From Prevotella sp. (lineage in GTDB: Bacteria > Bacteroidota > Bacteroidia > Bacteroidales > Bacteroidaceae): 64,000 bases of DNA. Under the pieces are notes generated by a model. The model ran no database searches. It was not told the DNA's origin and saw only the letters and a list, made by a program, of their open reading frames with translations. Numbering within the stretch: position 1 is the stretch's first letter; each line of letters begins with the position of its first letter. Shown here one piece after another: positions 5,764 to 59,370 of the stretch. The stretch lies in assembly GCA_022788105.1 (NCBI GenBank), contig JALEVZ010000053.1, positions 36,858-100,857 on the forward strand. The letters run 5' to 3'. Both the position numbers and the translations under genes were made by a program.

Positions 5764-5928
5764 TGACACTTTGCTACTATTTCGGGGCAAAATCTGACGC
5801 TAATTCTTAACGTCTGTTAAAAGCTCCATGCCGTTCCCACTACGGCCCTTTGACGTCGTCACTACGGCCCTTTGACAAGCCCATTAGGCCCCTTTGACAA
5901 GCCCAAAGAGCCACTATCATTTTGTCAA
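5764..5928 (+). repeat. 165-bp dispersed element, copy 1
   Basis: TGACAC head, TTAAC-gtct-GTTAA, four 22-bp units, TATCATTTTGTCAA tail. Confidence 0.9.
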
Positions 5929-6007
5929 CTCTGCCCAACGGCAAAACCTGCGCTACACGGCGGCTCTTTTAGCAACACCACACGGCGCGCACAACCAGCC
6001 CCCACCC

Positions 6008-7225
6008 TTACTGCTCGGGGTACTGCTGGTATATCTTTATGCCGAAGATGGGCGTGACAGCATAGACGTTGTCCATGATGTCGGCGAGCTGATGTTCATA
6101 CTCAACCCACGACTTCTCCTTCAGGAAGAAGTAGAACTCCAACGGCAGACCAGTGCTCGTAGCCTCCAACTGTCTCACCATGAAGGTCATGTCGGGGTTC
6201 ACCTCCTTGAGCGACGCTATGTAGCGCTCCATATATCTACGGAACAACGTCATGTTTATCTGCCTGCCTGTCAACTCCTTAGCGCTGAAATAGCCGCCAT
6301 CAACGAGCCGTTGCTTCATGGCGTCGTCAACTACACAGATGCTGTGAAAGTCGAACAGCACCATGCGTTTTACACGTCTTCCGCCGCTCTGCTGCATGCC
6401 TTTCCAGTTCTGAAACGAGTCCTGCACCAGCGTGGTGGGCGACACCGTGACTATGGTGTTGTCAAAATTGCGCACCTTCACCGTGGTGAGCGACATCTCC
6501 TCCACCACACCGTTGACGCCAGCCTTGTCAAACGTTATCCAGTCGCCTATGTGTAGCATGTTGTTGCTGGTAAGACGCACGCCGGCAACGAGTCCGGTGA
6601 TGGTGTCTCTGAACACCAGCATCATGACTGCCGAGGTGGCGCCGAGACCGGCAAGCAGGCTCAGCGGACTGCGGTTGATGACTATTCCGACAGCCACCAC
6701 TGTGCCAACGAACACCACGACGATGCGCAATACGCCGCAGAAGGAATGGAAATATTGTTGTGTGGACGTGCGCTGTCCGTCGCCCATATCAAGTTTTTTA
6801 GATGCGTTTACGAAAGCAAGCAGTAGGCGCACGGTCATGACGGTGATGTAAACCGCCGTGGCCCGCGACAGCAAGTCTTCGACTATAGGCTTCTGATAAA
6901 ACACCAGCGGCAGCAGAAGCCACACCACCACGGCAGGCACGATGTGACATGCAGCAACAAGCACATCGCGGTTGAACACTATGTCGTCCCATTTCGCCGA
7001 CGTGTGGGCAGTGAATTTCATCACCGCTGGCAGCACCAGGCGACGACACACGACATCTGCCAGCCACGCCAGCAGTATGGCAACCACCGCCATGAGCACG
7101 TGACGCATCACATATACGGCGTCGCCCTGCATGCCTGTGAGCGAGATGAGCTGCTCCACCACGTCGCGCACGGCGTCCATCGCCACCACTCTGTCGTGTG
7201 CAGCAGAAACTATCTGTTCGTTCAT
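6008..7225 (-). CDS. MscS-family mechanosensitive channel (MscM/YbdG-like)
   Basis: TM segments, then GDWI…GVVEEMSLTTVKVRNFDNT…SFQNWKGM…GGRRVKR. Confidence 0.9.
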   Translation of the reverse strand: MNEQIVSAAHDRVVAMDAVRDVVEQLISLTGMQGDAVYVMRHVLMAVVAILLAWLADVVCRRLVLPAVMKFTAHTSAKWDDIVFNRDVLVAACHIVPAVVVWLLLPLVFYQKPIVEDLLSRATAVYITVMTVRLLLAFVNASKKLDMGDGQRTSTQQYFHSFCGVLRIVVVFVGTVVAVGIVINRSPLSLLAGLGATSAVMMLVFRDTITGLVAGVRLTSNNMLHIGDWITFDKAGVNGVVEEMSLTTVKVRNFDNTIVTVSPTTLVQDSFQNWKGMQQSGGRRVKRMVLFDFHSICVVDDAMKQRLVDGGYFSAKELTGRQINMTLFRRYMERYIASLKEVNPDMTFMVRQLEATSTGLPLEFYFFLKEKSWVEYEHQLADIMDNVYAVTPIFGIKIYQQYPEQ

Positions 7226-7262
7226 ATCTCTTGGTTTTTAGTCTGTTACAATAGGTTTGGCG

Positions 7263-8513
7263 TTACGGACGGCACAGCTCCGTACACACTTTGTCTTGGA
7301 ACGCACGGCCGTTGCGCGTGTGGCGCAGACCGTTGTTGATAATAGAAAACGCCAGCGCATGGCCGTTTGCCGCCGTGCAGTAGCCTGCAAGCGAACTAAC
7401 ACCCGTCACCGTGCCAGTCTTGGCACATACGTTGCCGTTTGTAAACGACCCGTGCATGCGGTCGCGCAGTGTGCCATCGGTGGCAGCGATAGGCATCGAC
7501 GGCTTCAGGTGTAGCAATATGTTGCCGTTGCTGTAGGCGTAGCGCAGCATGGCAACCTCCAGTTCTGCCGACACATAATTATATAGTGACAAGCCCGATC
7601 CGTCGGCAAAGCTGTAGTCGTCGGGGTCGAGACCTATCTTGCGCACAAGCCGTTTTATCACCCCACGGGCCTGCTTGGCACTGGCATGACGCACGCCTGT
7701 GCTCGCCGCTATCTGGTAGAACATGGCCTCTGCGTACAGGTTGTCGCTGTCTTTCAACATGTTCATCAACACCTGGTCCATGGTGTGGAAACGATGGCAG
7801 ATGCAGAACGCATTGGCAGGCTTGACCGCCTCGCCCAGCGACGACTCCACCACGATGCCCGCATCGACGAGTTTCTCTACAAAACGCTGCACAAATATGT
7901 CGCGACGGCTGACGAGTAGCGGTGACAAGACGGGATTGTCGTCGTCCCAACACCAGCCTTCGCCGTAGTCGTTGTCGTCTTTCATGCTCTTGTCGGCATA
8001 TATGTTTCCGCGTATTGTGTCAACACCCATCTTGCGTATAGACTCTACAAAGGCGCGCATGTCGTCGGAGTTGAAGCGTGGGTCGAAGCCACCCACGCAG
8101 TAGATGTCACCCGTCAGCGTGTTGTTTTCCACCTTGCCAGTGTAGCACAGGTCTGTGTTGAACTGATGGGCACCACCGAGGCAGTCGATGGCTGTAACGG
8201 CTGTGATGACCTTCATGGTAGAAGCGGGGCGCAACAGCTGCCGTTCGCGATGGGCATAAAGCACGGAGTCGGCTGTGAGGTCGTAGACCATCATGCCTAC
8301 CTGCGATGTCTTGAACATGTCACTGCTCACCAAACGGTCGAGGTTCGTCCTCAGCGACTGCTCCCACGACTGCCCCACCACCTCGCTACGCGTGGTGTCT
8401 ATCGCCATGCTGTCGGCGTAGACCTGTGTCTCGTCACACTCTCTTACCTCTTGTGCAGGCAGTGTCGTGATAGCGACAAACATCATTGCCGCCAATATAA
8501 TAAGTCTTCTCAT
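7263..8513 (-). CDS. dacB: D-Ala-D-Ala carboxypeptidase/endopeptidase (peptidase S13)
   Basis: Signal peptide; PASTMK, SDN, DGSGLS and KTG motifs. Confidence 0.9.
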   Translation of the reverse strand: MRRLIILAAMMFVAITTLPAQEVRECDETQVYADSMAIDTTRSEVVGQSWEQSLRTNLDRLVSSDMFKTSQVGMMVYDLTADSVLYAHRERQLLRPASTMKVITAVTAIDCLGGAHQFNTDLCYTGKVENNTLTGDIYCVGGFDPRFNSDDMRAFVESIRKMGVDTIRGNIYADKSMKDDNDYGEGWCWDDDNPVLSPLLVSRRDIFVQRFVEKLVDAGIVVESSLGEAVKPANAFCICHRFHTMDQVLMNMLKDSDNLYAEAMFYQIAASTGVRHASAKQARGVIKRLVRKIGLDPDDYSFADGSGLSLYNYVSAELEVAMLRYAYSNGNILLHLKPSMPIAATDGTLRDRMHGSFTNGNVCAKTGTVTGVSSLAGYCTAANGHALAFSIINNGLRHTRNGRAFQDKVCTELCRP

Positions 8514-8588
8514 TGTCTTTGTATTCTCATTTCAGCTTTCAGAATCGGGCGCTCGATTGTCTGATTCGGGGGACATGGCTGTTAAAAA

Positions 8589-9011
8589 TCAGTCTTTCCG
8601 ATTCTCCGCTTCAGCCTGTCGCCGCTTCAATTCGGCAATAAAGGCCTCTGGATTGTCGGGACATAAGGCCATCATGCGACCAACGCCATACTCTATGCGC
8701 ACATGACTGTCGCGCAAGAAACCACCGCTCACCGCCTCCACGGCAGTGATGTCACAGAGCCTCAGCTGCATAACGCTCGCCAATCTGCCACGGTCTATGA
8801 GCAGCAACTCGTGTCCGCTGCCGTCGGTGCGCAGCACATAGGTGGTGTGAACCATGCGTTCAATGCCCGTCATGGCTACGGCGGCTACTGCCACTCCGAC
8901 AATTACCGCCCACCCGGTGCGGTGCAAAAGACAAGTCAATGCCACCACGCCGAGCATCACAACCGCCGCTATGCCGAGTACAGACACGCGTCGGTGAAAC
9001 GTTCTATCCAT
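8589..9011 (-). CDS. Hypothetical membrane protein (two TM segments)
   Basis: 140-aa ORF, hydrophobic N-terminal half, co-oriented with dacB. Confidence 0.7.
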   Translation of the reverse strand: MDRTFHRRVSVLGIAAVVMLGVVALTCLLHRTGWAVIVGVAVAAVAMTGIERMVHTTYVLRTDGSGHELLLIDRGRLASVMQLRLCDITAVEAVSGGFLRDSHVRIEYGVGRMMALCPDNPEAFIAELKRRQAEAENRKD

Positions 9012-9218: not shown

Positions 9219-9431
9219 TATTCCAAAGTCATGCTTTCTTCATTCCAAAGTCATGCTTTCTTCATTCCAAAGTCATGCTTTCTTCATTCCAAAGTCATGC
9301 TTTCTTCAATCCAAAATCATGATTCCTTCATTCCAAAATCATGATTCCTTCATTTCAAAGTCATGCTTTCTTCATTCCAAAGTCATGCTTTCTTCATTCC
9401 AAAGTCATGCTTTCTTCATTCCAAAGTCATG
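9219..9431. repeat. 22-bp tandem array, about 10 units of CATTCCAAAGTCATGCTTTCTT
   Basis: Units start at 9219, 9241, 9263…9417; two internal variants read AAAATCATGATTCC. Confidence 0.95.
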
Positions 9432-9446
9432 TCTTTTTCTTCAAAA

Positions 9447-11197: not shown

Positions 11198-11433
11198 GAA
11201 GAAGAAAAAACGGGAAGTGGAAGAAGAAAAAACGGGGAAAAGATGATAAAAAGGCAGGAAGCAAAAGACGAAAAGGCAGGAGACAAAAGACGAAAAGGCA
11301 GGAAACAAAAGACGAAAAGGCAGGAACCAAAAGACGAAAAGGCAGGAACCAAAAGATAAAAAAACAGGAAGCAAAAGGCGAAAAGGCAGGAAACAAAAGA
11401 CGAAAAGACAGGAAGCAAAAGACGAAAAGGCAG
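11198..11433. repeat. 22-bp tandem array, 10-11 units of AAAAGACGAAAAGGCAGGAA(A/G/C)C
   Basis: Visible period of 22, degenerating toward 11198. Confidence 0.95.
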
Positions 11434-11500
11434 AGTCTACCTGCCATTACAGCCCTTTGACAACACCAAAGAGTTGTAATGGCAAAGCCACTCTGCCTTT
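11426..11500 (-). terminator. Long hairpin terminator after the GNAT/C-N hydrolase gene
   Basis: AAAGGCAGAGT…TGCCATTACA…TGTAATGGCA…ACTCTGCCTTT. Confidence 0.65.
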
Positions 11501-11519
11501 ATCAGATGCTAAAACAACA

Positions 11520-14993: not shown

Positions 14994-15321
14994 AACGATG
15001 TGTTATATTTGGTTAATAATGTTGTTTGTTGTCTAATTGGTAATACCTGGCTTTACGGTTAAGTCACAATTGTTTACGCCTCAAAATTACAAATAATTAT
15101 TTTATTCTGCAAATCCTTATTTACAGTTCTTTCACACAAATGTCGCCGATTTGTGATTAAACATCTCCACGCGGTGCTTAAACGGTATAAAATCGTGCTT
15201 AAAATTTTATCAAGACAACACTGGCAGACATCGAAAACGCGCCCACGACACCCCTCTGCCGCGACGAAAACGATGCATCGCAGAAAGCGCTACACACCCC
15301 TCCGTTTCCGACTACTGCCGT

Positions 15322-15486
15322 TTGACAAAATGATAGTGCCCTTTTGGGCGTGTCAAAGGGGCCTAATGAGCTTGTCACTACGGCCCTTTGAGCGTGTCAT
15401 TTGGGCCTAATGGGAAATCCGCGAGGCTTTTAACAGACGTTAAGAATTGGCGTCAGATTTTACCTCCATATTGTAGCAAAATGTCA
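15322..15486 (-). repeat. 165-bp dispersed element, copy 2 (inverted)
   Basis: TTGACAAAATGATAG…TTAAC-agac-GTTAAGAATTGGCG…ATGTCA. Confidence 0.9.
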
Positions 15487-15729
15487 GCAAAACCCACATG
15501 AGAGCTATCATTGTGTCATTCGCGGTTTTCAACAATATCGGGCGGTGGTGTCACGTCGCCATCGCCACTTGCAGACGAGGCCGTCGCCCCGTGTAAAAAC
15601 GGCATAAAAAGACAGCGCCCTACAAGGGCAACGGCAGCACAGCGCAAGTCGCTGAACACAAATACCGTTGTCCCTGTAGGGCGCATTGTTTTATCTTTTG
15701 TTTTACTCCGCCCGTCGGCGGTCAAACGT

Positions 15730-16629
15730 TTACACCAGATGTGCAATGAGAGTCTCACGGTCTCCGGCGAGCATGTCGATGACCGGAAGCTCTATCATGG
15801 TGTAGCAGCCAGGCTGCTGACGCATGGAGGCGCGTGCCACATTTACCAACACCTGTGCTGTGAGGGCAGGGTTGTTGATGCTCATATTGAACTCCAGACG
15901 CTGGTTCTGGGTTTTGCCACTGACGCCTTTGCGCACGAGGTTGACGCCATGTCCCATGTCGCGCACCTCGTCGACAGAGGGCACAGCAAACACATGGGTC
16001 TCGTCGTTGGCGAAATAGGGGTCTGCCTTGATGGCGGCAGCCACGTCTTCGAGCTTTGCTCCGTCTTCCAACTCTACGTAAACCATGCGGCGGTGCAAGC
16101 CCTCGCCCTTAGGTATGGTCATAGAGAGTGCGTTCTTCACGCCGTCTTTTGAACGTGCGCACACGCTGTGGCCCATCGACATGCCTGGTCCGAAGTTGGT
16201 GTAGGTCAGTCCCTTAGGAGTCAGGCTCTGCATGAGCGAGCGCACGATGCTGTCTGAACCGGGGTCCCATCCTGCCGAAATCACTGCCACGGCGCCGTGT
16301 TCCTTACATATTGGCTGCAGGGTGCGGCGGTAGTCCACGATGGAGGTGTGTATGTCGAAGCTGTCGACGGTGTTGATGCCGAGGGGCAGTATCTGCTTGG
16401 CATATTCCTCACACGACCGCGAGGGTGTGGCAAGTATGGCTACATCGACGTCGTTCAGGTCGCGTATGTCCTTCACCACGTCATACTGTGCCAGCTCTGC
16501 CGGCTTGTTGTCTGCACCGTGGCGGCGCACCACGCCTGCCACCTCAAAATCGTCGGCTGCCTCAAGTGCCTCTATGGCGTAGCGACCGATATTGCCGTAG
16601 CCTACTACGGCGGCTCTTATTTTTTTCAT
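15730..16629 (-). CDS. ddh: meso-diaminopimelate D-dehydrogenase
   Basis: GYGNIG, VDSFDIH, GWDPG, TYTNFGPGMSMGHS. Confidence 0.93.
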   Translation of the reverse strand: MKKIRAAVVGYGNIGRYAIEALEAADDFEVAGVVRRHGADNKPAELAQYDVVKDIRDLNDVDVAILATPSRSCEEYAKQILPLGINTVDSFDIHTSIVDYRRTLQPICKEHGAVAVISAGWDPGSDSIVRSLMQSLTPKGLTYTNFGPGMSMGHSVCARSKDGVKNALSMTIPKGEGLHRRMVYVELEDGAKLEDVAAAIKADPYFANDETHVFAVPSVDEVRDMGHGVNLVRKGVSGKTQNQRLEFNMSINNPALTAQVLVNVARASMRQQPGCYTMIELPVIDMLAGDRETLIAHLV

Positions 16630-26864: not shown

Positions 26865-26930
26865 CGCCACAAGGCTGCACTATAGCGGAAAAGGCCCGCG
26901 GACAAAAAGACAGCGCAACGCGGCTTTTTG

Positions 26931-27095
26931 TGACACATTGCTACGATTTCGCAGCCGCAGCTTACGCCAATTCTTAACAAGCGTTAAAAGACAGTTGACA
27001 TTCCCATTAGGCCCCTTTGACGTCCTCATTAGGCCCCTTTGACGTCGCCAAAGGGCCGTAGTGACAACGCCAAAAAGGCACTATCATTTTGTCAA
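26931..27095 (+). repeat. 165-bp dispersed element, copy 3
   Basis: Same head, palindrome (TTAAC-aagc-GTTAA), four units and tail. Confidence 0.9.
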
Positions 27096-27120
27096 TCGGG
27101 CCTAATCATAAAACAACTAA

Positions 27121-29219: not shown

Positions 29220-29329
29220 TCGTCAATAAGAACAAGACTGCTCGTCAATAAAGACAAGACTGCTCGTCAATAAAGACAAGACAGTTCGTCAATAAAGACA
29301 AGACAGTTCGTCAATAAATACAAGACAAC
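29220..29329. repeat. 22-bp tandem array, 5 units of TCGTCAATAAAGACAAGAC(TGC/AGT)
   Basis: Units at 29220, 29242, 29264, 29286, 29308. Confidence 0.95.
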
Positions 29330-31300: not shown

Positions 31301-32173
31301 ATGAACATATTAGTAACAGGTGCCAACGGGCAACTCGGACACGAGATGCAGCGCGTGGCAACAGAGAGCAAACATTCGTTCGTGTTTACAGACGTGGCAG
31401 AAGGCTACGACAAACTCGACATCACAAGCCTGGAGGCGATACGCCAGATGGTGAAAGAGAAGGCAATAGACGTCATCGTGAACTGCGCCGCCTACACCAA
31501 CGTGGACAAAGCAGAGAGCGACTACGACGTCGCCAACCTGCTCAACAACACTGCTGCAGGCCATCTCGCGACAGCAATGAAAGAGGTGGGCGGCACACTA
31601 ATACACGTCTCCACCGACTACGTGTTCCAGGGCGACCGCAACACGCCCTGTCGCGAAGACTGGCCGACCTGTCCTCTCGGCGTGTATGGCAAGACAAAGC
31701 TCGCTGGCGAGCAAAGCATCGCAGCCACAGGCTGTCGCCACATCATCATACGCACGGCGTGGCTATACTCGCAATGGGGCAAAAACTTTGTCAAGACCAT
31801 GCAGAGTCTCACCGCCTCACACGACACATTGAAGGTGGTGTTCGACCAGGTGGGCACGCCGACCTTTGCCGGCGACCTCGCCGACGTCATCGCCCACATC
31901 ATCAACAGCGACCAGCTCGACAAGACAGGCATATACCACTTCTCCGACGAAGGTGTGTGCTCGTGGTTTGACTTCGCCAAGCTGATATGCGAACTCAGCG
32001 GCAACAGCTGCGACATACAGCCCTGCTACAGCGAAGAGTTCCCCAGCCCCGTGAAGCGTCCACACTTCTCCGTGCTCGACAAGAGCAAGTTGAAAGCCAC
32101 GTTCGGCATAAAGGTGCCCTACTGGACCGACTCGCTGAAGGTGTGCATCAAGCAGCTGGCAGCCAATCGCTAA
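31301..32173 (+). CDS. rfbD: dTDP-4-dehydrorhamnose reductase
   Basis: TGANGQLG, AAYTNVD, STDYVF, YGKTK. Confidence 0.96.
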   Translation: MNILVTGANGQLGHEMQRVATESKHSFVFTDVAEGYDKLDITSLEAIRQMVKEKAIDVIVNCAAYTNVDKAESDYDVANLLNNTAAGHLATAMKEVGGTLIHVSTDYVFQGDRNTPCREDWPTCPLGVYGKTKLAGEQSIAATGCRHIIIRTAWLYSQWGKNFVKTMQSLTASHDTLKVVFDQVGTPTFAGDLADVIAHIINSDQLDKTGIYHFSDEGVCSWFDFAKLICELSGNSCDIQPCYSEEFPSPVKRPHFSVLDKSKLKATFGIKVPYWTDSLKVCIKQLAANR

Positions 32174-33369: not shown

Positions 33370-33420
33370 AAAGAGCCAACAGCACCCGTCCCAAAGGTGT
33401 CGTTGGCTCTTTCTGTTTTT
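33370..33420 (+). terminator. Terminator after rfbB
   Basis: AAAGAGCCAAC…GTTGGCTCTTT followed by a T-rich tract. Confidence 0.75.
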
Positions 33421-33487
33421 ATCGTTGACCCATTCTGTTTTTTGTCATCGGATCCTTCTATCTTATCGTTGGCTCTTTCTGTTTTTA
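33400..33487. repeat. 22-bp tandem array, 4 units; unit 1 is the terminator 3' arm
   Basis: tcgttggctctttctgttttta identical at 33400 and 33466, with two variants between. Confidence 0.88.
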
Positions 33488-33546
33488 TTATAACAATGTG
33501 GAGAGAAAAGCGAAAATACACAAAGAAAGCAACACGGCGCTTTTAG

Positions 33547-33711
33547 TGACACATTGCCACATTTCCGCCGCTTAAACTTACGTCATTTCTTAACATTAGT
33601 TAAAAGCCGCGTGCCATCCCCACTACGCCCCTTTGAGCGCGTCATTAGGCCGTAGTGAGCGCGCCACTACGCCCCTTTGACAAGCCCAAAAGGGCACTAT
33701 CATTTTGTCAA
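33547..33711 (+). repeat. 165-bp dispersed element, copy 4
   Basis: TGACACATTG…TTAAC-atta-GTTAA…TATCATTTTGTCAA. Confidence 0.9.
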
Positions 33712-33779
33712 CAGAGCCTAATCAGAAATCAAGGGCATTTATTACAGTCTGCCAAAGCCCATTCATAGTACAAACAACA

Positions 33780-41774: not shown

Positions 41775-42608
41775 ATGAAACAGAACAACAACCTACAATA
41801 CAAGATTATAGCCCTCGACCTTGACGGTACGCTCACCAACGACGCCAAAGAGGTGACGCCGAAGACCCGTGAGGCGCTGCTCAACGCACAGCAGGAAGGA
41901 GTGGTCATAGTGCTCGCGTCGGGACGACCGACCTACGGCATAAAGCCCGTAGCCGACTGTTTGGAACTCAACCAGCGCGGAGGCTACATGCTGTCATACA
42001 ACGGCGGACAAATCATAGACTGCAAAAGCGGCGAAGTGATATACTCCAAGTACCTGCCCGACGACGTCATACCAGTGCTCTACAGCTACGCACGCAGCCA
42101 CGGCCACGCCCTGCTGGGATATGTCGGCGACGAGATAGTGACCGAAATGCCGTGGGACGAGTACGTGAAAGATGAGTCGCGCATCAACCGCATGGCAGTA
42201 AGACACGTCGACAACCTGCTCACAAGCCTTGAGCGCCACCCCACTAAGCTGCTGATGACGGGCGACCCGGCGAAGATGATAGCGGCCGAAGAAGAGCTGT
42301 CGCGCCTCGTAGGAGGCAGAATGGACGTGTTCCGCTCAGCGCCGTTCTTCATCGAACTGGTGCCGCAGGGCATCGACAAGGCGCAGTCGTTGCTGCGATT
42401 GCTCTCACGCCTCAACCTCACTCAGCAAGACCTCATGGCGTTTGGCGATGGCTATAACGACCTCTCCATGCTGAAACTGGCAGGACTGGGCGTGGCGATG
42501 GCTAACGCGGCACCCGAAGTGCGCGCCGATGCCGACTGGGTGACGCTGTCAAACGAAGACGACGGAGTGGCACATGCCCTCGACCGCTGGCTCCACTCAG
42601 AGCCTTAA
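41775..42608 (+). CDS. Cof-type HAD-IIB hydrolase
   Basis: DLDGTL, ASGRP, GDGYNDLSM. Confidence 0.93.
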   Translation: MKQNNNLQYKIIALDLDGTLTNDAKEVTPKTREALLNAQQEGVVIVLASGRPTYGIKPVADCLELNQRGGYMLSYNGGQIIDCKSGEVIYSKYLPDDVIPVLYSYARSHGHALLGYVGDEIVTEMPWDEYVKDESRINRMAVRHVDNLLTSLERHPTKLLMTGDPAKMIAAEEELSRLVGGRMDVFRSAPFFIELVPQGIDKAQSLLRLLSRLNLTQQDLMAFGDGYNDLSMLKLAGLGVAMANAAPEVRADADWVTLSNEDDGVAHALDRWLHSEP

Positions 42609-42684
42609 CATCCACACCCCGACAGACGCGTAAACACCCCGTCTGCTGGCTTCGATATAATAGTCGTTTGGGCATAAGGCCCAT

Positions 42685-42849
42685 TTGACAAAATGATAGC
42701 ACCCATTTGAGATTGCCAAAGGGCCGTAGTGACAAGCCCAAAGGAGCCCTTTGGCGTCCTCAAAGGGGCCCTTTGAGGATGCCGCGGGACTTTTAACAGA
42801 CGTTAAGAATTGCGTTTACAAAATCACGTTATTTCCTTACATTGTGTCA
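42685..42849 (-). repeat. 165-bp dispersed element, copy 5 (inverted)
   Basis: TTGACAAAATGATAG…TTAAC-agac-GTTAAGAATT…GTGTCA. Confidence 0.88.
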
Positions 42850-42965
42850 CATTTTACCCGCTTTTGCTGACACATAGGTTTTGTCACTTTTTCCCAAAAC
42901 CCACTTCTCACCACCTTCTGCACCCATCCATCACAGCATCAATACTTTGCGCCACCGCTACGACG

Positions 42966-43119
42966 CTTCCCAGCCGCCGCCATAGCACCTCTCCGCTGCA
43001 GCCGTAACATCTCTCCATTACCACCACACTCCCTCTCCATTGCCGTCACACTCCCTCTCCGCTGCCGCCGTAACACCTCTCCATTGCCGCCACAGCTCCT
43101 CCCCGCTGCCGTCACAACA
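42966..43119. repeat. 22-bp tandem array, 7 degenerate units (CCTCTCC(G/A)(C/T)TGCCGCC…)
   Basis: Units at 42966, 42988, 43010, 43032, 43054, 43076, 43098. Confidence 0.88.
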
Positions 43120-43257
43120 CCCTTTTGCAGCGTTATTTTCAAAAAAATGGCATCGCTTTTTTACGTTTATGCACTCGTCAGCGACATTTAATCACGTTTT
43201 CTGACAAACACGCACAACACTGCCCCACACAGTGTTGCACATTCCAAATATTATTCG

Positions 43258-45384: not shown

Positions 45385-47250
45385 ATGAACGAACTTAAAA
45401 TAGGCGCCACCCTACAAAACGGCAAGTACCGCATAGAGCACGTACTGGGTCAGGGTGGCTTCGGTATAACCTATCTCGCCACGCAAACAACACTCGGTTG
45501 CAAGGTGGCTATAAAGGAGTTTTTCTTTCAAGACTGCTGCGAGCGCCACGCTGACGACTCACGTGTGAGCGTGATAACGGCAAGCAAGCAGGAGCTGGTG
45601 GACAAGTTCCGCCGCAAATTCCTAAAGGAAGCGCGGCTCTTGCTTGCCATCAACCACCACAACATAGTGCGTGTGATGGACGCATTCGAAGAGAACGACA
45701 CCGCCTACTATGCTATGGAATACATCGAGGGCATCTCGCTCTCACAACTCATAAGCCAGAAAGGACGCCTCACGGCAGCCGAAACGCTCACCATAACCGA
45801 CTCCGTGGGCCAGGCTCTCGTCTATCTGCACGCACGAAACATAAACCATCTCGACATCAAGCCTGCCAACATAATGATTGAGAACGGCACGGAGCGCGTG
45901 CTACTCATCGACTTTGGCGTGTCGAAACAGTACGATCCAGAGACAGGACAGAGCACCACGACCACGCCGGTAGGTGTCAGCCACGGCTACGCGCCACTCG
46001 AACAGTACAACAACGGCGGCGTACAGACATTCTCTCCACAAAGCGACGTCTACGCCCTCGGTGCCACAATGCTGAAGATGTTGACCGGAATAACGCCCCG
46101 AAACGCCGTAGAGCTGTCGCAACAAGGCGGTCCCACCATCGCGGCGGACGTCCCCGTAAACTTCGCGGCAGCCATACGCGCCGCCATGCAGCCCGTAAAG
46201 GCAAACCGTCCGCAGTCTGTACAGCAGCTGTTGACCATCCTCCACGACGGTCCAACAGATGAAGAGGCGACGGTGGTAGGTGCAATTGGCAATGCAAACG
46301 GCACCTCGGGAGCAGCAAACGGAGCCTCCAACGCGACCAATAATGACGCAGCGGGAGCAGCAAACGGAGCCTCCGGCAACGGCAGCAACGCCTCAAGGTC
46401 TGCCAACGGCAAAGCCAAGCAGATGTTTATTGGCCTCGCACTGGCACTCGTCTTTGTCGGTTCAATCTTCTATCTCGGCACCGACCGCAACAAGACAGAC
46501 ACAACAGACAACATCATGGCTGCCGACAGCGACACCGTAGCGATAGACTCCGTAGCGGTAGAAGAAGACACCAACGTCTACACCGAGAGCTTCAGCCAAA
46601 GCATAAAAGGCAAGATGGACAAAACAAGTCTTAGCATTGAATATCCCACATCGGGTCCAGAGCTGCTCGTGCAGAACATACGCGAGTGGATAAACGAGTC
46701 GTTAGGCGGAAAATATAACGGCGATTTGAGCGACGGAAAAGCCCTCTTCAACTTATACTTCGGCTCCTTGAGACGCGAGATGACAGAAAATTCGGAATAC
46801 GAAAACTACAACCAGGTGACCATAAAGAAGCTGTATGAAAACGACAAGATAGCCACGTTCGTCTGCGAATCCTACTTCTACGGCGAGGGAGCAGCCCACG
46901 GCATGTCGAGCACCATGGGCGTAACGTTCCGCAAATCAGACGGACGCAAGTTCACGGTCAGCCTGCTCGATGGCTCCTACAAGTACCAAAGCGAGATAAA
47001 AACGGGCTTAAAGAAATACTTTGAGCTATCTTCCGACGAAGAGCTCATGGGCCGTTTGATGCTTAACAAAGACGCCGGCAGCGAGATACCGTTCCCCAAA
47101 AATGACCCGTGGATAACGGCAGCAGGCGTCGTGTTCTGCTATTCGGAATACGAGATAGCATGCTACGCCGACGGCATGCCTACCTTCACTATACCCGAAA
47201 GCGTAATAAAGAAGAAGAGTGCCGCCACCACACAGACATTCCTTGAATAG
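45385..47250 (+). CDS. Ser/Thr protein kinase - TM - DUF3298/RsiV(PdaC)-like domain
   Basis: GQGGFG, HLDIKPAN, DFG; TM; YGEGAAHG and YSEYEIACYADGMP motifs. Confidence 0.88.
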   Translation: MNELKIGATLQNGKYRIEHVLGQGGFGITYLATQTTLGCKVAIKEFFFQDCCERHADDSRVSVITASKQELVDKFRRKFLKEARLLLAINHHNIVRVMDAFEENDTAYYAMEYIEGISLSQLISQKGRLTAAETLTITDSVGQALVYLHARNINHLDIKPANIMIENGTERVLLIDFGVSKQYDPETGQSTTTTPVGVSHGYAPLEQYNNGGVQTFSPQSDVYALGATMLKMLTGITPRNAVELSQQGGPTIAADVPVNFAAAIRAAMQPVKANRPQSVQQLLTILHDGPTDEEATVVGAIGNANGTSGAANGASNATNNDAAGAANGASGNGSNASRSANGKAKQMFIGLALALVFVGSIFYLGTDRNKTDTTDNIMAADSDTVAIDSVAVEEDTNVYTESFSQSIKGKMDKTSLSIEYPTSGPELLVQNIREWINESLGGKYNGDLSDGKALFNLYFGSLRREMTENSEYENYNQVTIKKLYENDKIATFVCESYFYGEGAAHGMSSTMGVTFRKSDGRKFTVSLLDGSYKYQSEIKTGLKKYFELSSDEELMGRLMLNKDAGSEIPFPKNDPWITAAGVVFCYSEYEIACYADGMPTFTIPESVIKKKSAATTQTFLE

Positions 47251-47334
47251 AACACAAACAAGCACCATATAGCACACAAGCAAGCACCATATAGCACACA
47301 AGCAAGCATCGAATAGCACACAAACAAAGACCAC
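47247..47334. repeat. 22-bp tandem array, 4 units; the first contains the kinase stop codon
   Basis: atagaacacaaacaagcaccat / atagcacacaagcaagcaccat / atagcacacaagcaagcatcga / atagcacacaaacaaagaccac. Confidence 0.9.
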
Positions 47335-47342
47335 TCCACAAT

Positions 47343-49604
47343 ATGAACGAACTAAAGACAGGCTTTGCCCTGCAAAACGGCAAATACCGCATTGAACGCG
47401 TGCTGGGTCAGGGCGGCTTCGGCATAACCTATCTTGCCGTGCAGGTAAACCTCAACCGCAAGGTAGCCATAAAAGAGTTTTTCATGAAGGAGCTGTGCAA
47501 CCGCGACGCTACCACATCTCACGTGTCGGTGCCGTCGACAGGCAGCGCCACCACGGTGGAACGGTTCCGCAGCAAGTTCGTGAAGGAAGCGCAAACCATA
47601 GCCGGACTCGACAATCCGCACATCATTCGCATACACGACATATTCAATGAGAACGGCACCGCCTACTATGTCATGGACTATCTTGGCAACGGTTCGCTCT
47701 CCGACCGTGTAAAAAGCGGCGGACCAATGGACGCGCAGACAGCCACAACCTACATCCAGCAGATTGGCGAGGCACTCACTTACCTGCACGCCCGCAGCAT
47801 CAACCACCTCGACATCAAGCCGTCTAACATACTCATCAACGCCAGCGGAGAAGCCATAGTCATAGACTTCGGACTGTCAAAGCGCTACGACGAGAGCGGC
47901 ACGCAGACCAGTTCGACGCCCGTTGGCATCAGTCACGGCTACGCACCGCTTGAGCAGTACCAGCCGGGAGGCGTCAGCACGTTTTCACCAACTGCCGACA
48001 TCTACGCCCTCGGCGCCACACTCTTCTATCTGCTCACCGCCACAGCGCCGCCCAACGCTACCACATTGCTCTACGACGGCTTCCCCACCGCCACACTGAC
48101 GAGCCACAACGTGGCGCCGACGATAGCCATCATAGTAGAGAAAGCCATGCAACCGCTACCGAAAGACCGCTACGCGAGCGTGGCAGAAATGACCAGTGCG
48201 CTCGACAAGGCTCTCTCTACAAAAACCGACGAAGCCACCGTGACAGCCAACACCAACCCCAGTGAGGCAACCATAATAGGCGCAACGCCAACCGTGGCAC
48301 GCCCCAAACCAACTACTACAAGCTCAAAGACAACCGCTTCAAGCCCCAAGACGCCAGCCACAACGACCCCAAAACCAACCGCTTCAAGCCACAACGCGCC
48401 AGCCACAAAGCCCCACATACAGTGGCACTGGAAGCGCGCGGCGTTGGTGATGCTGCTTGAATACGTGGCAGTGATAGTCCACACAAGCATCTTCAGCCAA
48501 TACTCCTGGTTCAAAGGGCTATATTACACCTTCGTGGGATATGAATCTCCCGACATGAGAGACATCGCATTCTACGTCCAAGACCTGCTCATCACAGCGC
48601 TATTGATTGCCGCCCTCTGCGCCGCAATATACCGTTGGCGCCATCTGTCGCTACACTTCATAGCACGTTGGGCAGCAGTTGTCTTCATACCGGCGTTTTA
48701 TCCATTCAGCATGGTGATTGATACGTATTACCTTTACGGCTACTACATCAATTCGTACACAGCCTTTTTTGCACTCTCTCTGCTGTCAGCCTTCGCCTTC
48801 GCGCTGCCCATGAAGCTGGAAGAGGGGTCTATAAGCAAGACCCTAAAGCGCCACAAGGTGCAGACACTATGGATTGTGCTTATACTCTTCAGCATGGCAT
48901 GCGGCACAGCAGTGCGTTTGCAATGGTATTATAGCGAGCGCAAACGCTTTGTAAAACCTGTCGATTTAGGATTGTCGGTCAAGTGGTCGCCAGTAGGAAC
49001 AAACAGCACCACAGGCTCACTACAACTTGAAGGCTGGCCGTCCTACACCTTCTCCAACAACGACTGCAGCCCTAACAAAGACGCAGACGACCCTACTGAT
49101 TACGGCGAATACATCTTCAAAGAGATAAACATACCCACCAAAGATTGCGACCTGAAGCGAATCCCGATAAATGGGAATAACGATCACCCCAACACCTTAT
49201 TAAAATATTACGGTGACGGATGGCGCATGCCGACGTATGCAGAGATGAAAGAACTCGTCGAAAAGTGTACATGGGACTGGGTCAAGATACCCGAAGGCTA
49301 CTACGGAGAGACCTACGGCTACAGGGTGACAGGTCCAAGCGGACGCTCCATACTGCTCCCGGCGAGAGGATATCTACGACTCGACAAGCGCAATGGCACA
49401 TACTACGCAAGCAAGCGACGTGAAGGCCACGACGCCTACTACATGACTGGCACCGTCAACCACGCCAAACCCGACGGGCTCTACGTCCACTACTTAGCGA
49501 TAGAGAGCAACGACTCGCTCGGCACACACACCGCCAAAATGCGTAGCATGTCTATAGAAGACGCGCAACACATCGCTATGTGCATTCGCGCCGTACACGA
49601 CTGA
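47343..49604 (+). CDS. Ser/Thr protein kinase - multi-TM - VDLGLSVKW/WRMPT (DUF1566-like) domain
   Basis: GQGGFG, HLDIKPSN, DFG; about 5 TMs; VDLGLSVKW, GWRMPT…EL, GPSGRSILLPA. Confidence 0.87.
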   Translation: MNELKTGFALQNGKYRIERVLGQGGFGITYLAVQVNLNRKVAIKEFFMKELCNRDATTSHVSVPSTGSATTVERFRSKFVKEAQTIAGLDNPHIIRIHDIFNENGTAYYVMDYLGNGSLSDRVKSGGPMDAQTATTYIQQIGEALTYLHARSINHLDIKPSNILINASGEAIVIDFGLSKRYDESGTQTSSTPVGISHGYAPLEQYQPGGVSTFSPTADIYALGATLFYLLTATAPPNATTLLYDGFPTATLTSHNVAPTIAIIVEKAMQPLPKDRYASVAEMTSALDKALSTKTDEATVTANTNPSEATIIGATPTVARPKPTTTSSKTTASSPKTPATTTPKPTASSHNAPATKPHIQWHWKRAALVMLLEYVAVIVHTSIFSQYSWFKGLYYTFVGYESPDMRDIAFYVQDLLITALLIAALCAAIYRWRHLSLHFIARWAAVVFIPAFYPFSMVIDTYYLYGYYINSYTAFFALSLLSAFAFALPMKLEEGSISKTLKRHKVQTLWIVLILFSMACGTAVRLQWYYSERKRFVKPVDLGLSVKWSPVGTNSTTGSLQLEGWPSYTFSNNDCSPNKDADDPTDYGEYIFKEINIPTKDCDLKRIPINGNNDHPNTLLKYYGDGWRMPTYAEMKELVEKCTWDWVKIPEGYYGETYGYRVTGPSGRSILLPARGYLRLDKRNGTYYASKRREGHDAYYMTGTVNHAKPDGLYVHYLAIESNDSLGTHTAKMRSMSIEDAQHIAMCIRAVHD

Positions 49605-49646
49605 AAAATGCGATTTGTCACAATGTAAGCGACATCGCTGTTTCGC

Positions 49647-49811
49647 TGACACATTGCTACGTTTTAGTGCGTTCTGCTTACGCCAATTCTTAACGAGTGT
49701 TAAAGCAGCAGCGAACTTCCCACTACGCCCCTTTGGGCTTGCCACTACGGCCCTTTGACATCGTCATTAGGCCGTAGTGACAACGCCAAAGGGGTGCTTT
49801 CATTTTGTCAA
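49647..49811 (+). repeat. 165-bp dispersed element, copy 6
   Basis: TGACACATTGCTAC…TTAAC-gagt-GTTAA…TCATTTTGTCAA. Confidence 0.9.
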
Positions 49812-49977
49812 TCGGCAATAGTGGCAAAATCATCAGCCACAGACCACTTTTCACAAACGCCACACCCATCTGCCAATTAGCACCCCTTTGGACATCCGTC
49901 GTATTGTTTTTTTTAGTAAGTTTGCAATCAGATAAAGACGCGACACACCATGACGTGTCGTAAAGAAAGGTCTACAG

Positions 49978-51811: not shown

Positions 51812-51855
51812 ACGATAACATAACACGTCAAGAACGATAACATAACACGTCAAGA
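51812..51855. repeat. Exact 22-bp tandem duplication in the response regulator 5' UTR
   Basis: acgataacataacacgtcaaga x2. Confidence 0.95.
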
Positions 51856-51857
51856 AT

Positions 51858-52544: not shown

Positions 52545-52560
52545 GCAAGAGAAGGAGCTT

Positions 52561-52626
52561 CTTTGGAGGCGAGATTTGGTATCTTTGGAGGCGAGATTTG
52601 GCATCTTTGGAAGCGAGATTTGGCAT
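52561..52626. repeat. 22-bp tandem array, 3 units of CTTTGGAGGCGAGATTTGGCAT
   Basis: Units at 52561, 52583, 52605. Confidence 0.95.
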
Positions 52627-52689
52627 CCAATAAAGCGCCATTAGCCCCATTACGAAGCACAAATAGTCTTATAACAAAAATCAAAAACT

Positions 52690-56140: not shown

Positions 56141-56191
56141 ACAAAGAAAAACGGTCTTTTGCATAAAGAAAGCAAAAGACCGTTTTTCTTT
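56141..56191. terminator. Terminator after the TraB/GumN gene
   Basis: AAAGAAAAACGGTCTTTTGC…GCAAAAGACCGTTTTTCTTT. Confidence 0.8.
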
Positions 56192-56354
56192 ACATTATGA
56201 TAGAAAACAAAGCGCTTTTGTAACGCCAATTCTTAACGTCTGTTAAAAGCCCACAGAGATTGCCAAAGGGGCCAAATGGGCTTGTCACTACGGCCTAATG
56301 AGCTTGTCACTACGGCCCTTTGACAACGCCAAAAGGGTGCTATCATTTTGTCAA
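56190..56354 (+). repeat. 165-bp dispersed element, copy 7 (head degenerate)
   Basis: CGCCAATTCTTAAC-gtct-GTTAAAAG, four units and tail at the conserved spacing. Confidence 0.85.
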
Positions 56355-56417
56355 ACGGCACTAACGGGAAAATGATCACCGCCCGACCGTTTTTCAAAAC
56401 CTATAGATTCTGTCGGG

Positions 56418-56517: not shown

Positions 56518-57333
56518 CTACTTCTCGAAACGACACTTGCAATAGACGCAACCGTTGTCCTGTTTGAGCAGGCTGTACGGCTTCATGCCGAGGAAGTGGC
56601 GGCACTGCGGGTTCGGACACACATACTTGTGTTGGAACTCTTCGGTCAACTTGTCGAGTTCGTCGATGCTCTTGTCGCTGTAAGCCATGTAGAATGCATA
56701 GATTGTAACGGCAAGACCCACGAAGAAAAGCACGGTTGTAGCGTCTGTCACCATGGGGCTGACGCCCGATATGCGCGACACGGCGCCGCTGCTGATGGTG
56801 AATATCGGCGCCACGCCTCTGAGCAGATTGAGGTTGCGCTGGCGATATTTTATCTCCATTTGCTTGTCGTGGAACTCGTCATATACAGCTTTCAGATGGT
56901 CTATGCTGAACGTCGGCACATTCTCTGATGCACCACCACCGCTCTTGACAGCGCTGCCACCGCCTATCACCTGGTTGGCAATGAGCGTGAGAGTCTTCAG
57001 CACTTCCGCCACAGACACTTGGTACTTGTACTGTCCCATCTCTATGATGCTGCCCTCGTCGATGTGCTTCTTCATAATCTGTGTGCCGTCGACAAACGTC
57101 ACATTCTCTGCTTTGGCGTTCTCGAGAGTCATGTCTCCCTTCATGTCTATCTGCAAACGGCAGTGCGCCTTGTCCTCGCCGGGTATGCAACGGCTCACAC
57201 CTCCCGACACGCTGCCGGGCTGTCCTATCGGTGCGAAGTAGTTTTTGCCGTTGTGTTTCATCGACACCAGCAGTCTGCCGTTTACTGGTTCGCGTCCTAT
57301 GAGTATGGTCTTTCCAAAAAGTCTGTTGTCCAT
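56518..57333 (-). CDS. FHA-domain membrane protein with a C-terminal Cys4 zinc ribbon
   Basis: IGR…VSR…H…NVTFVDG FHA pattern; two hydrophobic segments; CPNPQC…CVYC. Confidence 0.8.
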   Translation of the reverse strand: MDNRLFGKTILIGREPVNGRLLVSMKHNGKNYFAPIGQPGSVSGGVSRCIPGEDKAHCRLQIDMKGDMTLENAKAENVTFVDGTQIMKKHIDEGSIIEMGQYKYQVSVAEVLKTLTLIANQVIGGGSAVKSGGGASENVPTFSIDHLKAVYDEFHDKQMEIKYRQRNLNLLRGVAPIFTISSGAVSRISGVSPMVTDATTVLFFVGLAVTIYAFYMAYSDKSIDELDKLTEEFQHKYVCPNPQCRHFLGMKPYSLLKQDNGCVYCKCRFEK

Positions 57334-57414
57334 TTTATTTGTTTTATCTTATGTTTTTACTGTTGTCTCGCGAGCAATCGGCGCGCCATGAGTCACGCGG
57401 CGCAGCCTCATCTT

Positions 57415-57810
57415 TTATTCTCCTTTCTCTTTCTCCACCACAGCCGATGAGCACAACGTGCTGACATACATCTCCTTGAGCTTCTTCAACGCCTCTTTGG
57501 AGATGCTCACGGGATAGGCAAACAGCTCCCCGTCGCTCAACACGAGCTTCTGTTTGAGCACGCTGATGTGGTAGACGTAGTCGAGATTGACGATGTGTCG
57601 CTTGCCGACACGTGCAAACACAGTGCCTGCTTCGTGCAGATTGTCGTTGATAAGCTTCTGCATTTGCGCGAGGTTCATGCACACCGCACCCTTTAGTTTG
57701 TTGCTCAAATAGAAGTTCGTATAGTTGCCTTCTGCTTCGAAATAGACTATGTGGGCGATGTCAATCTTATATAACTCGTCGCGGCTATTGATATAAAGAT
57801 ATTTTCTCAT
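57415..57810 (-). CDS. Stand-alone LytTR DNA-binding protein
   Basis: IVYFEAEGNY, FARVGKRHIVN; no receiver domain. Confidence 0.88.
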   Translation of the reverse strand: MRKYLYINSRDELYKIDIAHIVYFEAEGNYTNFYLSNKLKGAVCMNLAQMQKLINDNLHEAGTVFARVGKRHIVNLDYVYHISVLKQKLVLSDGELFAYPVSISKEALKKLKEMYVSTLCSSAVVEKEKGE

Positions 57811-57869
57811 AATCGGTATAATTAGTTGTTGGCTATGCTATTGTTGTGCCGGATAGGCACGGACTGACG

Positions 57870-59054
57870 CTATGCGCGGCGCAGGTAAAGATAGTCTGCA
57901 GTCTGTTCCTCACCCGTGTCGGTGTCGCACACGACGACAGTGGCATGCAGACGTTCGTCCACATCTATCGTTACGGTCACGTGGTGCGGCTGATGGGTGA
58001 AGCGACGACGCAGGTCAAGCGGTCGCATGTCGCCGTCGTAGCCGACAAACAGCTCGTCACTCTCTTCAAGCACAAGGTCTGCCGAGCGCTTGCAGGGTAT
58101 GGGTTGGAAGGCTGGCATCAGCACATCGGTGATGCGTATGTCGCTCTCTGGGTGCGCCTTGCACAAGCCGAAGGGCACGGGCGTGGCGTCGAGCAGCACG
58201 TCGCAGACATAGAACTCAAACGGCGACTCACCCATACAGAACAGCACACGCATTGCTCCCGCTATGAATTGGAAGAACGCCGAACTGTTGTCAAGCTCCG
58301 CTACACGGCAGCTGTCGGCAGTGGTAGGCTCGTCACACTCGTCAAGCACGCCCGACTCCAGCACCTCCATCATGCCGTCGTTGCACTCATAGTGGCAGAA
58401 CATGCCATTATATATGAGCATGGAGTCGCCCTCCGACGGTGCGCCAAAGGCTGTCAAGTGCTGCTGACGGGTTATGCGATAGTTGCGAAACGCGAACGGA
58501 TAGCGACTTAACAGGTCTGCCACCTTGCCGAGTTGTGACGCTCGACAGTAGGTTATGATGTTGCGCGCATCGCTCAATGTTTGCCAGTTGTCAATGATAT
58601 AGTTGCCTATCGGATGGGTGGAAAAGTCGACGAGCGCCAGCGCACTGGGCATGTACGACGGCACAACAGCACGCATAAGGTCGTCGGCAAGGTTTTCTAT
58701 CCAGTAGCTGTTCACTGGTTTGTAGATGCGTCCGTCGTGGTATATGAGCACCGAGTTGTCGTTGGTGAGCGATATGATGGACACCCCGAAGTTGTTTATG
58801 TCGGTGGTTGTGCGACGCACGTCAGCCTTACCGTCAGTTCCCGACTGCCAACGGTGCTTCACATTGAAGAACGACGACTCAAGCTTCACGCGGTCGCTGT
58901 TGAGCGTATCGGTGAACTCGCCAATCTCTGTGGTCTCGCTATGAATGTTGCGCTCATTGTAGCCATAGGGGCTGCGCGGTGAGTCGCTGCCTTCTGTCCG
59001 TTGTACAGACTCTTTCTGTTCGTCCATTACTGTGTGTTGCTGATATGCGGTCAA
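57870..59054 (-). CDS. Hypothetical protein with a degenerate Hsp70 substrate-binding-like C-terminus
   Basis: DVLLDATPVPFG…PIPCKRS…VTIDVD…DTDTGEEQ resembles the DnaK beta-SBD; no ATPase motifs seen. Confidence 0.6.
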   Translation of the reverse strand: MTAYQQHTVMDEQKESVQRTEGSDSPRSPYGYNERNIHSETTEIGEFTDTLNSDRVKLESSFFNVKHRWQSGTDGKADVRRTTTDINNFGVSIISLTNDNSVLIYHDGRIYKPVNSYWIENLADDLMRAVVPSYMPSALALVDFSTHPIGNYIIDNWQTLSDARNIITYCRASQLGKVADLLSRYPFAFRNYRITRQQHLTAFGAPSEGDSMLIYNGMFCHYECNDGMMEVLESGVLDECDEPTTADSCRVAELDNSSAFFQFIAGAMRVLFCMGESPFEFYVCDVLLDATPVPFGLCKAHPESDIRITDVLMPAFQPIPCKRSADLVLEESDELFVGYDGDMRPLDLRRRFTHQPHHVTVTIDVDERLHATVVVCDTDTGEEQTADYLYLRRA

Positions 59055-59082
59055 TAGATGGTTAATATACCATTTAATGCTG

Positions 59083-59090
59083 CAAAGTTA
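59083..59090 (-). promoter_or_regulatory. -7 promoter element of the Hsp70-like/LytTR/FHA operon (TAACTTTG)
   Basis: TAnnTTTG on the minus strand. Confidence 0.6.
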
Positions 59091-59205
59091 CAATTTCTTG
59101 CGCACATTCTGCCACCTGTCTGCCGTTTTTTTAAGTAAAAACGCGATGAAAGAGAAATAGGCAGAAAGCGACAAGACACAAAGAAAGCAGAAACCACGGT
59201 TTTAG

Positions 59206-59370
59206 TGACACATTGTCACGATTCCGTCGTTTCTGCTTACGCCAATTCTTAACACATGTTAAAGCCGCGGTGGTTTTCCCACTACGGCCCTTTGACATCG
59301 CCATTAGGCCGTAGTGACATCGTCAAAGGGCCGTAGTGAGAAGCCCGAAAAGGCCCTATCATTTTGTCAA
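59206..59370 (+). repeat. 165-bp dispersed element, copy 8
   Basis: TGACACATTG…TTAAC-acat-GTTAA…TATCATTTTGTCAA. Confidence 0.9.

Follow-up and report, generated by a model that had tools for sequence, protein, structure and literature searches.

What holds eight copies of a noncoding sequence to one internal geometry while the sequence between their motifs diverges, and what might such an element do for the chromosome that carries it? The question is raised by a stretch of 64,000 nucleotides (hereafter the window; contig JALEVZ010000053.1 of assembly GCA_022788105.1, positions 36,858 to 100,857, forward strand) from a pig-gut Prevotella, in which an initial annotation had described eight copies of a dispersed 165-bp element. 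Two explanations had been offered: a platform for proteins bound at several sites, possibly akin to repetitive extragenic palindromes (REPs) and bacterial interspersed mosaic elements (BIMEs), or a MITE (miniature inverted-repeat transposable element) mobilised in trans. The reading at which we arrive, and for which we judge the chances to be evenly balanced, is that the element is a selection-maintained, BIME-like docking module in double-stranded DNA, probably architectural in role.

A locked register at near-saturated divergence

The DNA comes from a 2.49-Mb metagenome-assembled genome (MAG) of 130 contigs, about 90% complete. In the labels used below, G000 is this MAG, C113 is the contig of the window, and L-numbers are comparison loci or contigs. 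An nhmmer profile built from the eight window copies, each of which it scores at E = 1e-48 to 1e-54, was used to scan the whole MAG and returned 136 full copies, besides 28 loci that are partial or consist of the array alone, the highest copy number among the genomes examined in this analysis. Copies are not clustered among the contigs of the MAG.

The layout had been described correctly: a head, TGACAC(A/T)TTG, is followed by a palindromic block, CGCCAATTC-TTAAC-N4-GTTAA, by four 22-bp units and by a tail, TATCATTTTGTCAA. Among the eight window copies the invariant blocks are TGACA in the head, TTCTTAAC-N4-GTTAAA, and C.ATCATTTTGTCAA in the tail. The N4 centre is there, but it is not wholly free, its last base being mostly T. 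A length of 165 bp proved too short, since conservation spans about -68 to +140 relative to TTAAC, so that the element measures about 200-210 bp. The ends do read TGACA...TGTCA, yet the inverted repeat that they form is weak (9 of 14 positions agree between the head and the reverse-complemented tail), and conservation decays from the centre, the most conserved part, toward both ends, the least conserved.

That geometry stays fixed while spacers diverge is borne out genome-wide, and freely varying internal spacing was not seen. Of the 104 copies in which the interval between palindrome and tail could be scored, 99 have exactly 112 nt and three have 134 nt, corresponding to one extra unit; from head to palindrome the distance is 43 nt in 75 of 83 copies. 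A gapless register of 215 columns is common to 102 copies whose mean pairwise identity is 63%. The 50 least informative columns agree at only 35%, where random sequence would give 25%, so that these positions are near saturation and still free of indels.

Each 22-bp unit consists of a 15-nt core, in which two 7-nt words stand inverted around a central G/C, and of a 7-nt linker, ACnnnGT. As units are inverted word pairs joined by linkers, the array amounts to eight 11-bp half-units of alternating orientation. Its vocabulary is dominated by three words (A = CAAAGGG, B = CACTACG, C = CATTAGG), and among 254 exact units the pairs were A|B in 161, C|B in 52 and C|A in 36, while only five joined a word to itself, compared with about 94 under random pairing, a heterotypic grammar that avoids perfect palindromes. 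Every array position holds units in either orientation, and adjacent units are often direct copies of one another. Flips among copies are likewise seen in an A4/T4 tract at -18 to -15; some copies have a long hairpin upstream of the head whose left arm is degenerate in most, and the A/T periodicity spectrum of the element was uninformative. Two candidate causes of the heterotypic rule were dropped: restriction-site avoidance, which fails to cover all three same-word units, and hairpin avoidance alone, because linker-centred complementarity, which would give the more stable hairpins, is only mildly depleted.

Purifying selection between strains

Conspecific strains at 95-99% identity, found by scanning metagenomes, provided 44 orthologous copy pairs for comparison. 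Change per site-pair rose from 1.7% at the 89 columns that are conserved to 5.3% at intermediate ones and 7.4% at those that are free, with 2.3% in the flanks of the same pairs, which are mostly coding; motif columns thus change 4.4 times less than free ones. Changes concentrate in the N4 centre and in the 12-nt spacer 3' of the palindrome, and the palindrome arms and tail are nearly unchanged (one column with a single change in the 44 pairs). The motif columns are under ongoing purifying selection between strains.

Words were also found swapped as blocks in situ between strains, as in unit 2 of L061 and unit 3 of L080, so short-tract conversion does occur. It cannot, for its part, explain blocks that stay invariant inside saturated spacers.

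Even spacing along the chromosome

With gene gaps defined from rough calls based on open reading frames (ORFs) in a fragmented MAG, a copy is present in 11% of convergent gaps, versus 4% of tandem and 5% of divergent ones. In tandem contexts the copy lies closer to the upstream stop in 47 of 68 cases.

Spacing could be measured within contigs for 65 intervals, whose median is 10.8 kb. Spacings below 3 kb make up 1.5% of those observed and 23-24% of those simulated, and spacings below 5 kb 6% and 37-40%, respectively. The coefficient of variation (CV) is 0.40, versus 0.79-0.84 in simulations (p<0.001 under each of four candidate-site models), and on C113 alone, where 13 copies lie within 102 kb at intervals of 3-11.6 kb, it is 0.31 versus an expected 0.86. 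Models of hard exclusion over 2-5 kb give CVs of 0.70-0.51, above that observed (p<=0.0175). When the 28 partial or array-only loci, which fill contigs without full copies, are added, the CV becomes 0.44 and the median 9.5 kb. The copies are thus spaced far more evenly than chance or simple exclusion would place them, which is a new result.

Over-dispersion could also arise if a MITE-like element had been amplified by a transposase in trans, its units being transposase sites that confer target immunity as in Mu, Tn7 and Tn3. The repulsion of close copies agrees with such an origin, and the excess of regularity over hard exclusion argues against it; we consider it unlikely, for reasons that also include its mobility record, given further below.

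The copies in the window

All eight copies lie at the coordinates and on the strands first assigned to them, and 241-nt segments containing them align with one single-base gap, which falls in the left flank, outside the 165-bp element. In the list below, copy 3 serves as exemplar.

5739-5947, plus strand: copy 1; head at 5764, TTAAC-N4-GTTAA at 5807-5820, four units, tail end at 5928
11440-11512, minus strand: unit-array fragment matching profile positions 54-126 only, related to the 22-bp units of the element, at the end of an unrelated 22-bp array
15303-15511, minus strand: copy 2; head side toward the 3' end of a DAPDH-like gene (15730-16629, minus)
26906-27114, plus strand: copy 3; head 26931-26944, palindrome 26974-26987, unit array 27001-27085, tail 27086-27095
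33522-33730, plus strand: copy 4; an unrelated 22-bp array lies ahead at 33400-33488
42666-42874, minus strand: copy 5; tail side about 60-77 nt from the stop of ORF 41775-42608 (plus)
49622-49830, plus strand: copy 6; directly 3' of ORF 47343-49604 (plus)
56165-56373, plus strand: copy 7; degenerate head (TTACAT), palindrome-to-tail register kept
59181-59389, plus strand: copy 8; a PALP-domain gene (59397-60344, minus) has its 3' end 27 nt from the tail
1174-1283, 9220-9436, 11249-11433, 29220-29327, 47247-47327, 52560-52627 and 62100-62204: examples of other 22-bp arrays

Copy 7 had been said to keep the spacing from palindrome to tail without a recognisable head, and it does. Every copy had also been placed between genes and next to at least one gene 3' end; Pfam scans of ambiguous flanking ORFs uphold this for copies 1, 2 and 8, and for the other five it rests on a mechanical ORF list. 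Copy 1 is flanked by two minus-strand genes, an ETF gene with its 5' end toward the copy and an MscS-like gene with its 3' end toward it. The ETF domain is encoded on the minus strand, in ORF 4696-5790, and an overlapping plus-strand ORF of 574 aa (3652-5376) has no Pfam match, so the gene beside this copy runs leftward. Copy 3 sits in a convergent gap, starting 38 nt past the stop of a 2546-aa ORF, and another unrelated 22-bp array lies near copy 5 (42954-43129). On C113 four copies lie upstream of those in the window, and a ninth copy begins at the very end of the window (63997-64000 onward; G000:C113:100854-101045, minus strand). Copies 6, 7 and 8 are in place in two other pig-gut strains, whose DNA contigs (Logan) break inside the copies.

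Other 22-bp arrays are common in this genome. Among 901 tandem-repeat loci in the MAG, 360 have a period of 22, 44, 66 or 88 (295 exactly 22); 261 of these 360 do not overlap matches to the element profile and differ in unit sequence from array to array, and about 99 do overlap. A 22-bp period is a genome-wide feature of the MAG. Copies adjoin unrelated 22-bp arrays in 36 cases, about as many as a shared intergenic location predicts. A two-unit 22-bp array, ACGATAACATAACACGTCAAGA (51812-51856), varies in copy number among pig-gut strains, with one unit fewer in run X3 and one more in runs X13 and X16.

Function as DNA or as RNA

A position near gene 3' ends, with enrichment in convergent gaps, would also suit an RNA-level 3'-UTR module like REP or BOX, transcribed with the upstream gene in either direction and acting as a terminator, as a barrier to 3'-5' exonucleases or as an array for an RNA-binding protein. 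Some heads carry a strong hairpin between A and T runs (on contig C80, a stem of 16 bp whose loop contains the head motif), and in several species the last unit and tail, as read from the sequences, resemble a hairpin followed by a U-rich run. The array itself folds strongly as a single strand. We nevertheless regard this explanation as rather improbable. Mutual information over 250 columns in 102 near-independent copies revealed no long-range Watson-Crick covariation, and all 45 top covarying column pairs listed are at most 10 nt apart, within words. Given 23 copies from 12 species, RNAalifold predicted no structure other than the invariant 5-bp palindrome, and the covariation term was 0. A match to a known Rfam family, one outcome that had been raised for the element, did not appear, either at gathering thresholds in the window or at E<=1 in seven copy-bearing loci.

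Same-word units, which would form hairpins, are nearly absent, and complementarity between adjacent units is depleted rather than enriched; pairing between units as RNA stems was rejected, class matches between units being at or below expectation. Real arrays fold slightly worse than position-preserving chimeras (-33.7 vs -36.8 kcal/mol, p = 0.002). The head hairpin was likewise discarded as a shared RNA structure: it is strong in few copies and degenerate in most, and its MAFFT alignment is gappy and yields no alifold structure. An RNA module would, moreover, leave unexplained the exact spacing to the palindrome and the even spacing of about 10 kb. Relative to flanking genes in tandem contexts, 36 copies are co-oriented and 31 anti-oriented. 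RNA contigs (Logan) are sparse and too thin for a verdict, and none among the matches listed crosses a copy. The lack of covariation, of an Rfam match and of orientation bias, the poorer folding of real arrays than of chimeras, and the strand-symmetric flips of the units favour a function as double-stranded DNA over one as RNA.

The element in other species

The 19-mer AATTCTTAAC-N4-GTTAA has 97 matches in the MAG and zero or one in each of 150 congeners, and the 17-nt pattern TTCTTAAC-N4-GTTAA has one to five in each of ten other carrier genomes. At 16 loci, spread over 12 further MAGs of Prevotella whose sources are gut, rumen and horse, we found the same head, palindrome, four units and tail, with a gap of exactly 98 nt in all 16, the search pattern having allowed 98-120. 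The units at these loci are species-specific variations on AAAG-N5-CTTT. Frame, palindrome and tail thus persist while units vary by species, as would be expected if the sites co-evolve with a binding protein.

One other genome holds about 40 array-only copies, and another, G169 (L034-L039), holds about 30 copies with an asymmetric variant block, TTGTTAAC-N4-CTTAAAA; together they indicate that the array of four 22-bp units is the common core and that the flanking modules vary by species. Close to each outer end of the G169 copies there are, in addition, motifs resembling TGCATAAATAT; these may be the true termini of a longer element of about 260 bp.

Between distant species, one gap with a copy is common in the same orientation (L011/C99) and one in the opposite orientation (L026/C12). 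A gap that is filled in L019 holds unrelated sequence in the MAG and is too diverged for insertion borders to be defined.

Mobility

The MITE explanation gains from several of these observations. The expansion is species-specific, different species carry copies at different loci, and in one shared gap the copy is turned the other way. The weak terminal symmetry TGACA...TGTCA counts in the same direction, as does a recent event on contig C80, where the only near-identical copies of the MAG (90%) stand in inverted orientation around a 10.6-kb segment (L164:527-700, plus, and L164:11333-11505, minus; G000:C80:21026-21199 and 31832-32004). Their similarity begins and ends sharply over about 192 bp, the size of a copy, and the pair could reflect gene conversion or a recent copy event. 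The species-specific expansion and this copy-sized event show that the element spread as a discrete module. Tn7 and Mu ends, too, carry arrays of 22-bp transposase sites.

The remaining evidence runs against mobilisation in trans. The ends of the element are its least conserved part and the centre its most conserved. No target duplication of at least 5 bp came to light, since the two flanks of a copy share direct repeats of 5-12 bp no more often than shuffled flank pairs do. Empty orthologous sites were not met with either: all 46 sites that were fully spanned, and so resolvable, are occupied in both strains; several other comparisons were one-sided or split. Selection acting in situ, and a geometry without indels at saturation, are not expected of decaying copies, and the units flip, unlike directional transposase sites. 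At three loci the comparison gave other differences: a full copy in one strain (L045) is a tail-only fragment in the MAG (G000:C6:2524-2585), an indel of about 62 bp adjoins a copy (L070 vs G000:C80:31765-31826), and one metagenome contig (L059) joins the flanks of copies on C37 and C113, through either recombination between copies or an assembly chimera.

A cognate enzyme was also looked for. The earlier statement that the window contains no transposase holds for Y1_Tnp, rve, DDE_Tnp_1 and Phage_integrase, the genome-wide matches to which include none on C113, and among the families searched in the MAG no enzyme gene was flanked by the element. No rve-family gene (PF00665) was found in the MAG, which is 90% complete, and its one DDE_Tnp_1 gene (C14), one IS200-like Y1_Tnp gene and three tyrosine recombinase genes are not linked to copies. 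The Y1 gene (G000:C96:323-781; L027) scores 74 bits with Pfam and 52.8 bits with NCBIfam, below the 55-bit cut-off; it lies 6 bp from the next gene and has a CTGGGC-rich repeat on its 3' side. Its orthologues, about 68% identical, occur in 13 of 60 congeners, and the sampled congeners all lack the element. With no element nearby and orthologues in element-free congeners, this gene was rejected as a REP-associated tyrosine transposase (RAYT), and a RAYT-linked REP family was ruled out because the sole Y1_Tnp gene is neither linked to the element nor co-distributed with it. Nor does the element fit a transposon end of the Tn7/Mu type, as units occur in both orientations and PF00665 was not found in the 90%-complete MAG.

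With four 22-bp repeats beside an inverted repeat, the element is arranged like an iteron origin, and the copies might then serve some other DNA transaction, either as iteron-like sites for titration or handcuffing of a replication initiator or as accessory sites for a recombinase or invertase. The inverted C80 pair would agree with the latter, since it flanks its segment beside a XerD-like recombinase gene (L164:11694-12683, minus). That gene exceeds the cut-off of an NCBIfam tyrosine-recombinase subfamily, falls just short of that of the XerD equivalog (318 vs 329.6 bits) and looks like the housekeeping recombinase. The MAG contains 136 copies, no rep-like or recombinase gene recurs beside them, the element has no matches in viral contigs or in plasmid or phage collections, and its quasi-palindromic flipping units are unlike directional iterons; the same features (copy number, flipping units, no recurrent neighbour gene, no plasmid or phage match) do not fit an iteron-type origin. 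We consider such a transaction very improbable. To readings beyond these and our own, taken together, we allow only a small chance.

Comparison with known repeats

No account of an element like this one in Prevotella turned up in a search of the literature. In the BIMEs of Escherichia coli, palindromic REP units of two types, Y and Z, alternate in orientation and are accompanied by linkers and flanking motifs that are likewise defined (the literature of Gilson and Bachellier); these elements dock gyrase, IHF and Pol I. The Prevotella element resembles them in being extragenic, biased to operon 3' ends and convergent gaps and present in hundreds of copies, and also in its construction: units of different types in alternating orientation, heterotypic pairing, two kinds of half-unit junction and specific flanking motifs. 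By analogy, we would propose for it a docking role such as BIMEs have for gyrase, IHF and Pol I. The differences are equally clear. Its units are 22 bp long (11-bp half-units) rather than hairpins of 35-40 bp, their number is fixed at four, the register is free of indels over about 200 bp, and the element has neither a linked RAYT nor sequence similarity to BIMEs. To our knowledge, even spacing of about 10 kb has not been reported for BIMEs.

In BOX of Streptococcus pneumoniae, the order is boxA-boxB(n)-boxC, the 45-bp boxB being present in variable number, and the element is believed to act through RNA structure and to be MITE-like. Modular organisation into head, tandem internal units and tail is common to both, as is the presence of some 100 or more intergenic copies per genome of about 2 Mb. 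BOX differs in that its geometry is not fixed and even spacing has not been reported for it.

Among published elements the nearest is BrickBuilt, a minisatellite-containing MITE of Porphyromonas gingivalis, order Bacteroidales (Klein et al. 2015, PMC4596501). It carries IS5-type 12-bp terminal inverted repeats (GAGACCTTTGCA / TGCAAAGGTCTC) and between 1 and 22.8 direct repeats of 23 nt, exists in 19 copies and shows promoter activity (PMC4596501). Both elements have a host in the Bacteroidales, are intergenic and species-restricted, and consist of a leader, spacerless tandem repeats of about 22-23 nt and a tail. However, the terminal inverted repeats of BrickBuilt are not present in the Prevotella consensus (99-112 copies, -90 to +160), in which the register is locked over 136 copies and the units are 22 bp long, quasi-palindromic and flipping, with four in 99 of 104 copies and five in three. 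Lacking IS5-type inverted repeats and having a fixed rather than variable number of units, the element is not a member of the BrickBuilt family.

A proposed docking module and its likely role

The initial proposal of a multi-site or REP/BIME-like platform is the one that the evidence strengthens: exact spacing at near-saturated divergence, selection between strains, the absence of orientation bias and of RNA covariation, strand-symmetric flips and even spacing all agree with it. Of the alternative it had named, mobilisation in trans, the species-specific expansion and the C80 event stand, and the poorly conserved ends, the absence of target duplications of 5 bp or more and of a cognate transposase in the MAG, and the occupation of all 46 resolvable sites speak against it. 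Binding by a protein, and the role of the resulting complex, we infer from the sequence. A sequence-specific protein, probably a dimer, would bind cooperatively to the four phased 22-bp quasi-palindromic units. Partner sites at exact distances, namely the head TGACACnTTGCTAC, the block AATTCTTAAC-N4-GTTAAA and the tail CTATCATTTTGTCAA, would be fixed relative to the array, and on units and partner sites together a defined nucleoprotein complex would be built, about every 10 kb, where transcription units end. Such a complex could serve in supercoil management, as a barrier between topological domains or as a boundary of transcription units at the DNA level. The module probably first spread in the lineage as a mobile or gene-converting unit and would have been retained later. 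An architectural role is suggested by the distribution of the loci, some 136 of them full and 28 array-only, which occupy gaps free of genes, for the most part at gene 3' ends, at about one per 10 kb.

More tentatively, and as a conjecture that we would not call probable, the copies may be evenly spaced anchors, about one per 10 kb, of a chromosome-organising system, either topological-domain barriers or strong topoisomerase sites at transcription-unit ends. A dedicated protein with a footprint of about two turns would then set the 22-bp ruler across the Prevotellaceae, its specificity co-evolving with the units.

Several observations weigh against a docking module of this kind. The spacing statistics come from a fragmented MAG (130 contigs, 28 of them with at least two copies) and rough ORF-based gaps, although we see no way in which assembly could selectively lose short spacings when the copies concerned are only 63% identical. 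Gene conversion, evident in the block swaps of words and in the 90%-identical C80 pair, could inflate the apparent conservation. As a single strand the array folds strongly (-34 kcal/mol, versus -22 for shuffles), so that a REP-like role in RNA may still apply. The expansion is lineage-specific, with zero or one match in each of 150 congeners and one to five in the carriers, hence a function in this exact form is not genus-wide. No binding protein was found, no gene recurs beside the copies at the 16 cross-species loci, and copy positions are not clearly conserved among distant species, sharing being no greater than chance.

REP/BIME, BOX, Correia, BrickBuilt and other interspersed repeats of bacteria are usually viewed as selfish or loosely functional. 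Here more than a hundred copies combine an exact register at saturated divergence, purifying selection at the level of strains and near-regular spacing of about 10 kb, a combination that makes the purpose of intergenic repeats testable in an abundant gut genus. The element offers a defined bait for a new DNA-binding protein and predicts Hi-C or Topo-seq boundaries at its copies. It also ties one sequence family to the 22-bp period of the genome, in which 360 arrays of the period-22 type are spread over 2.5 Mb.

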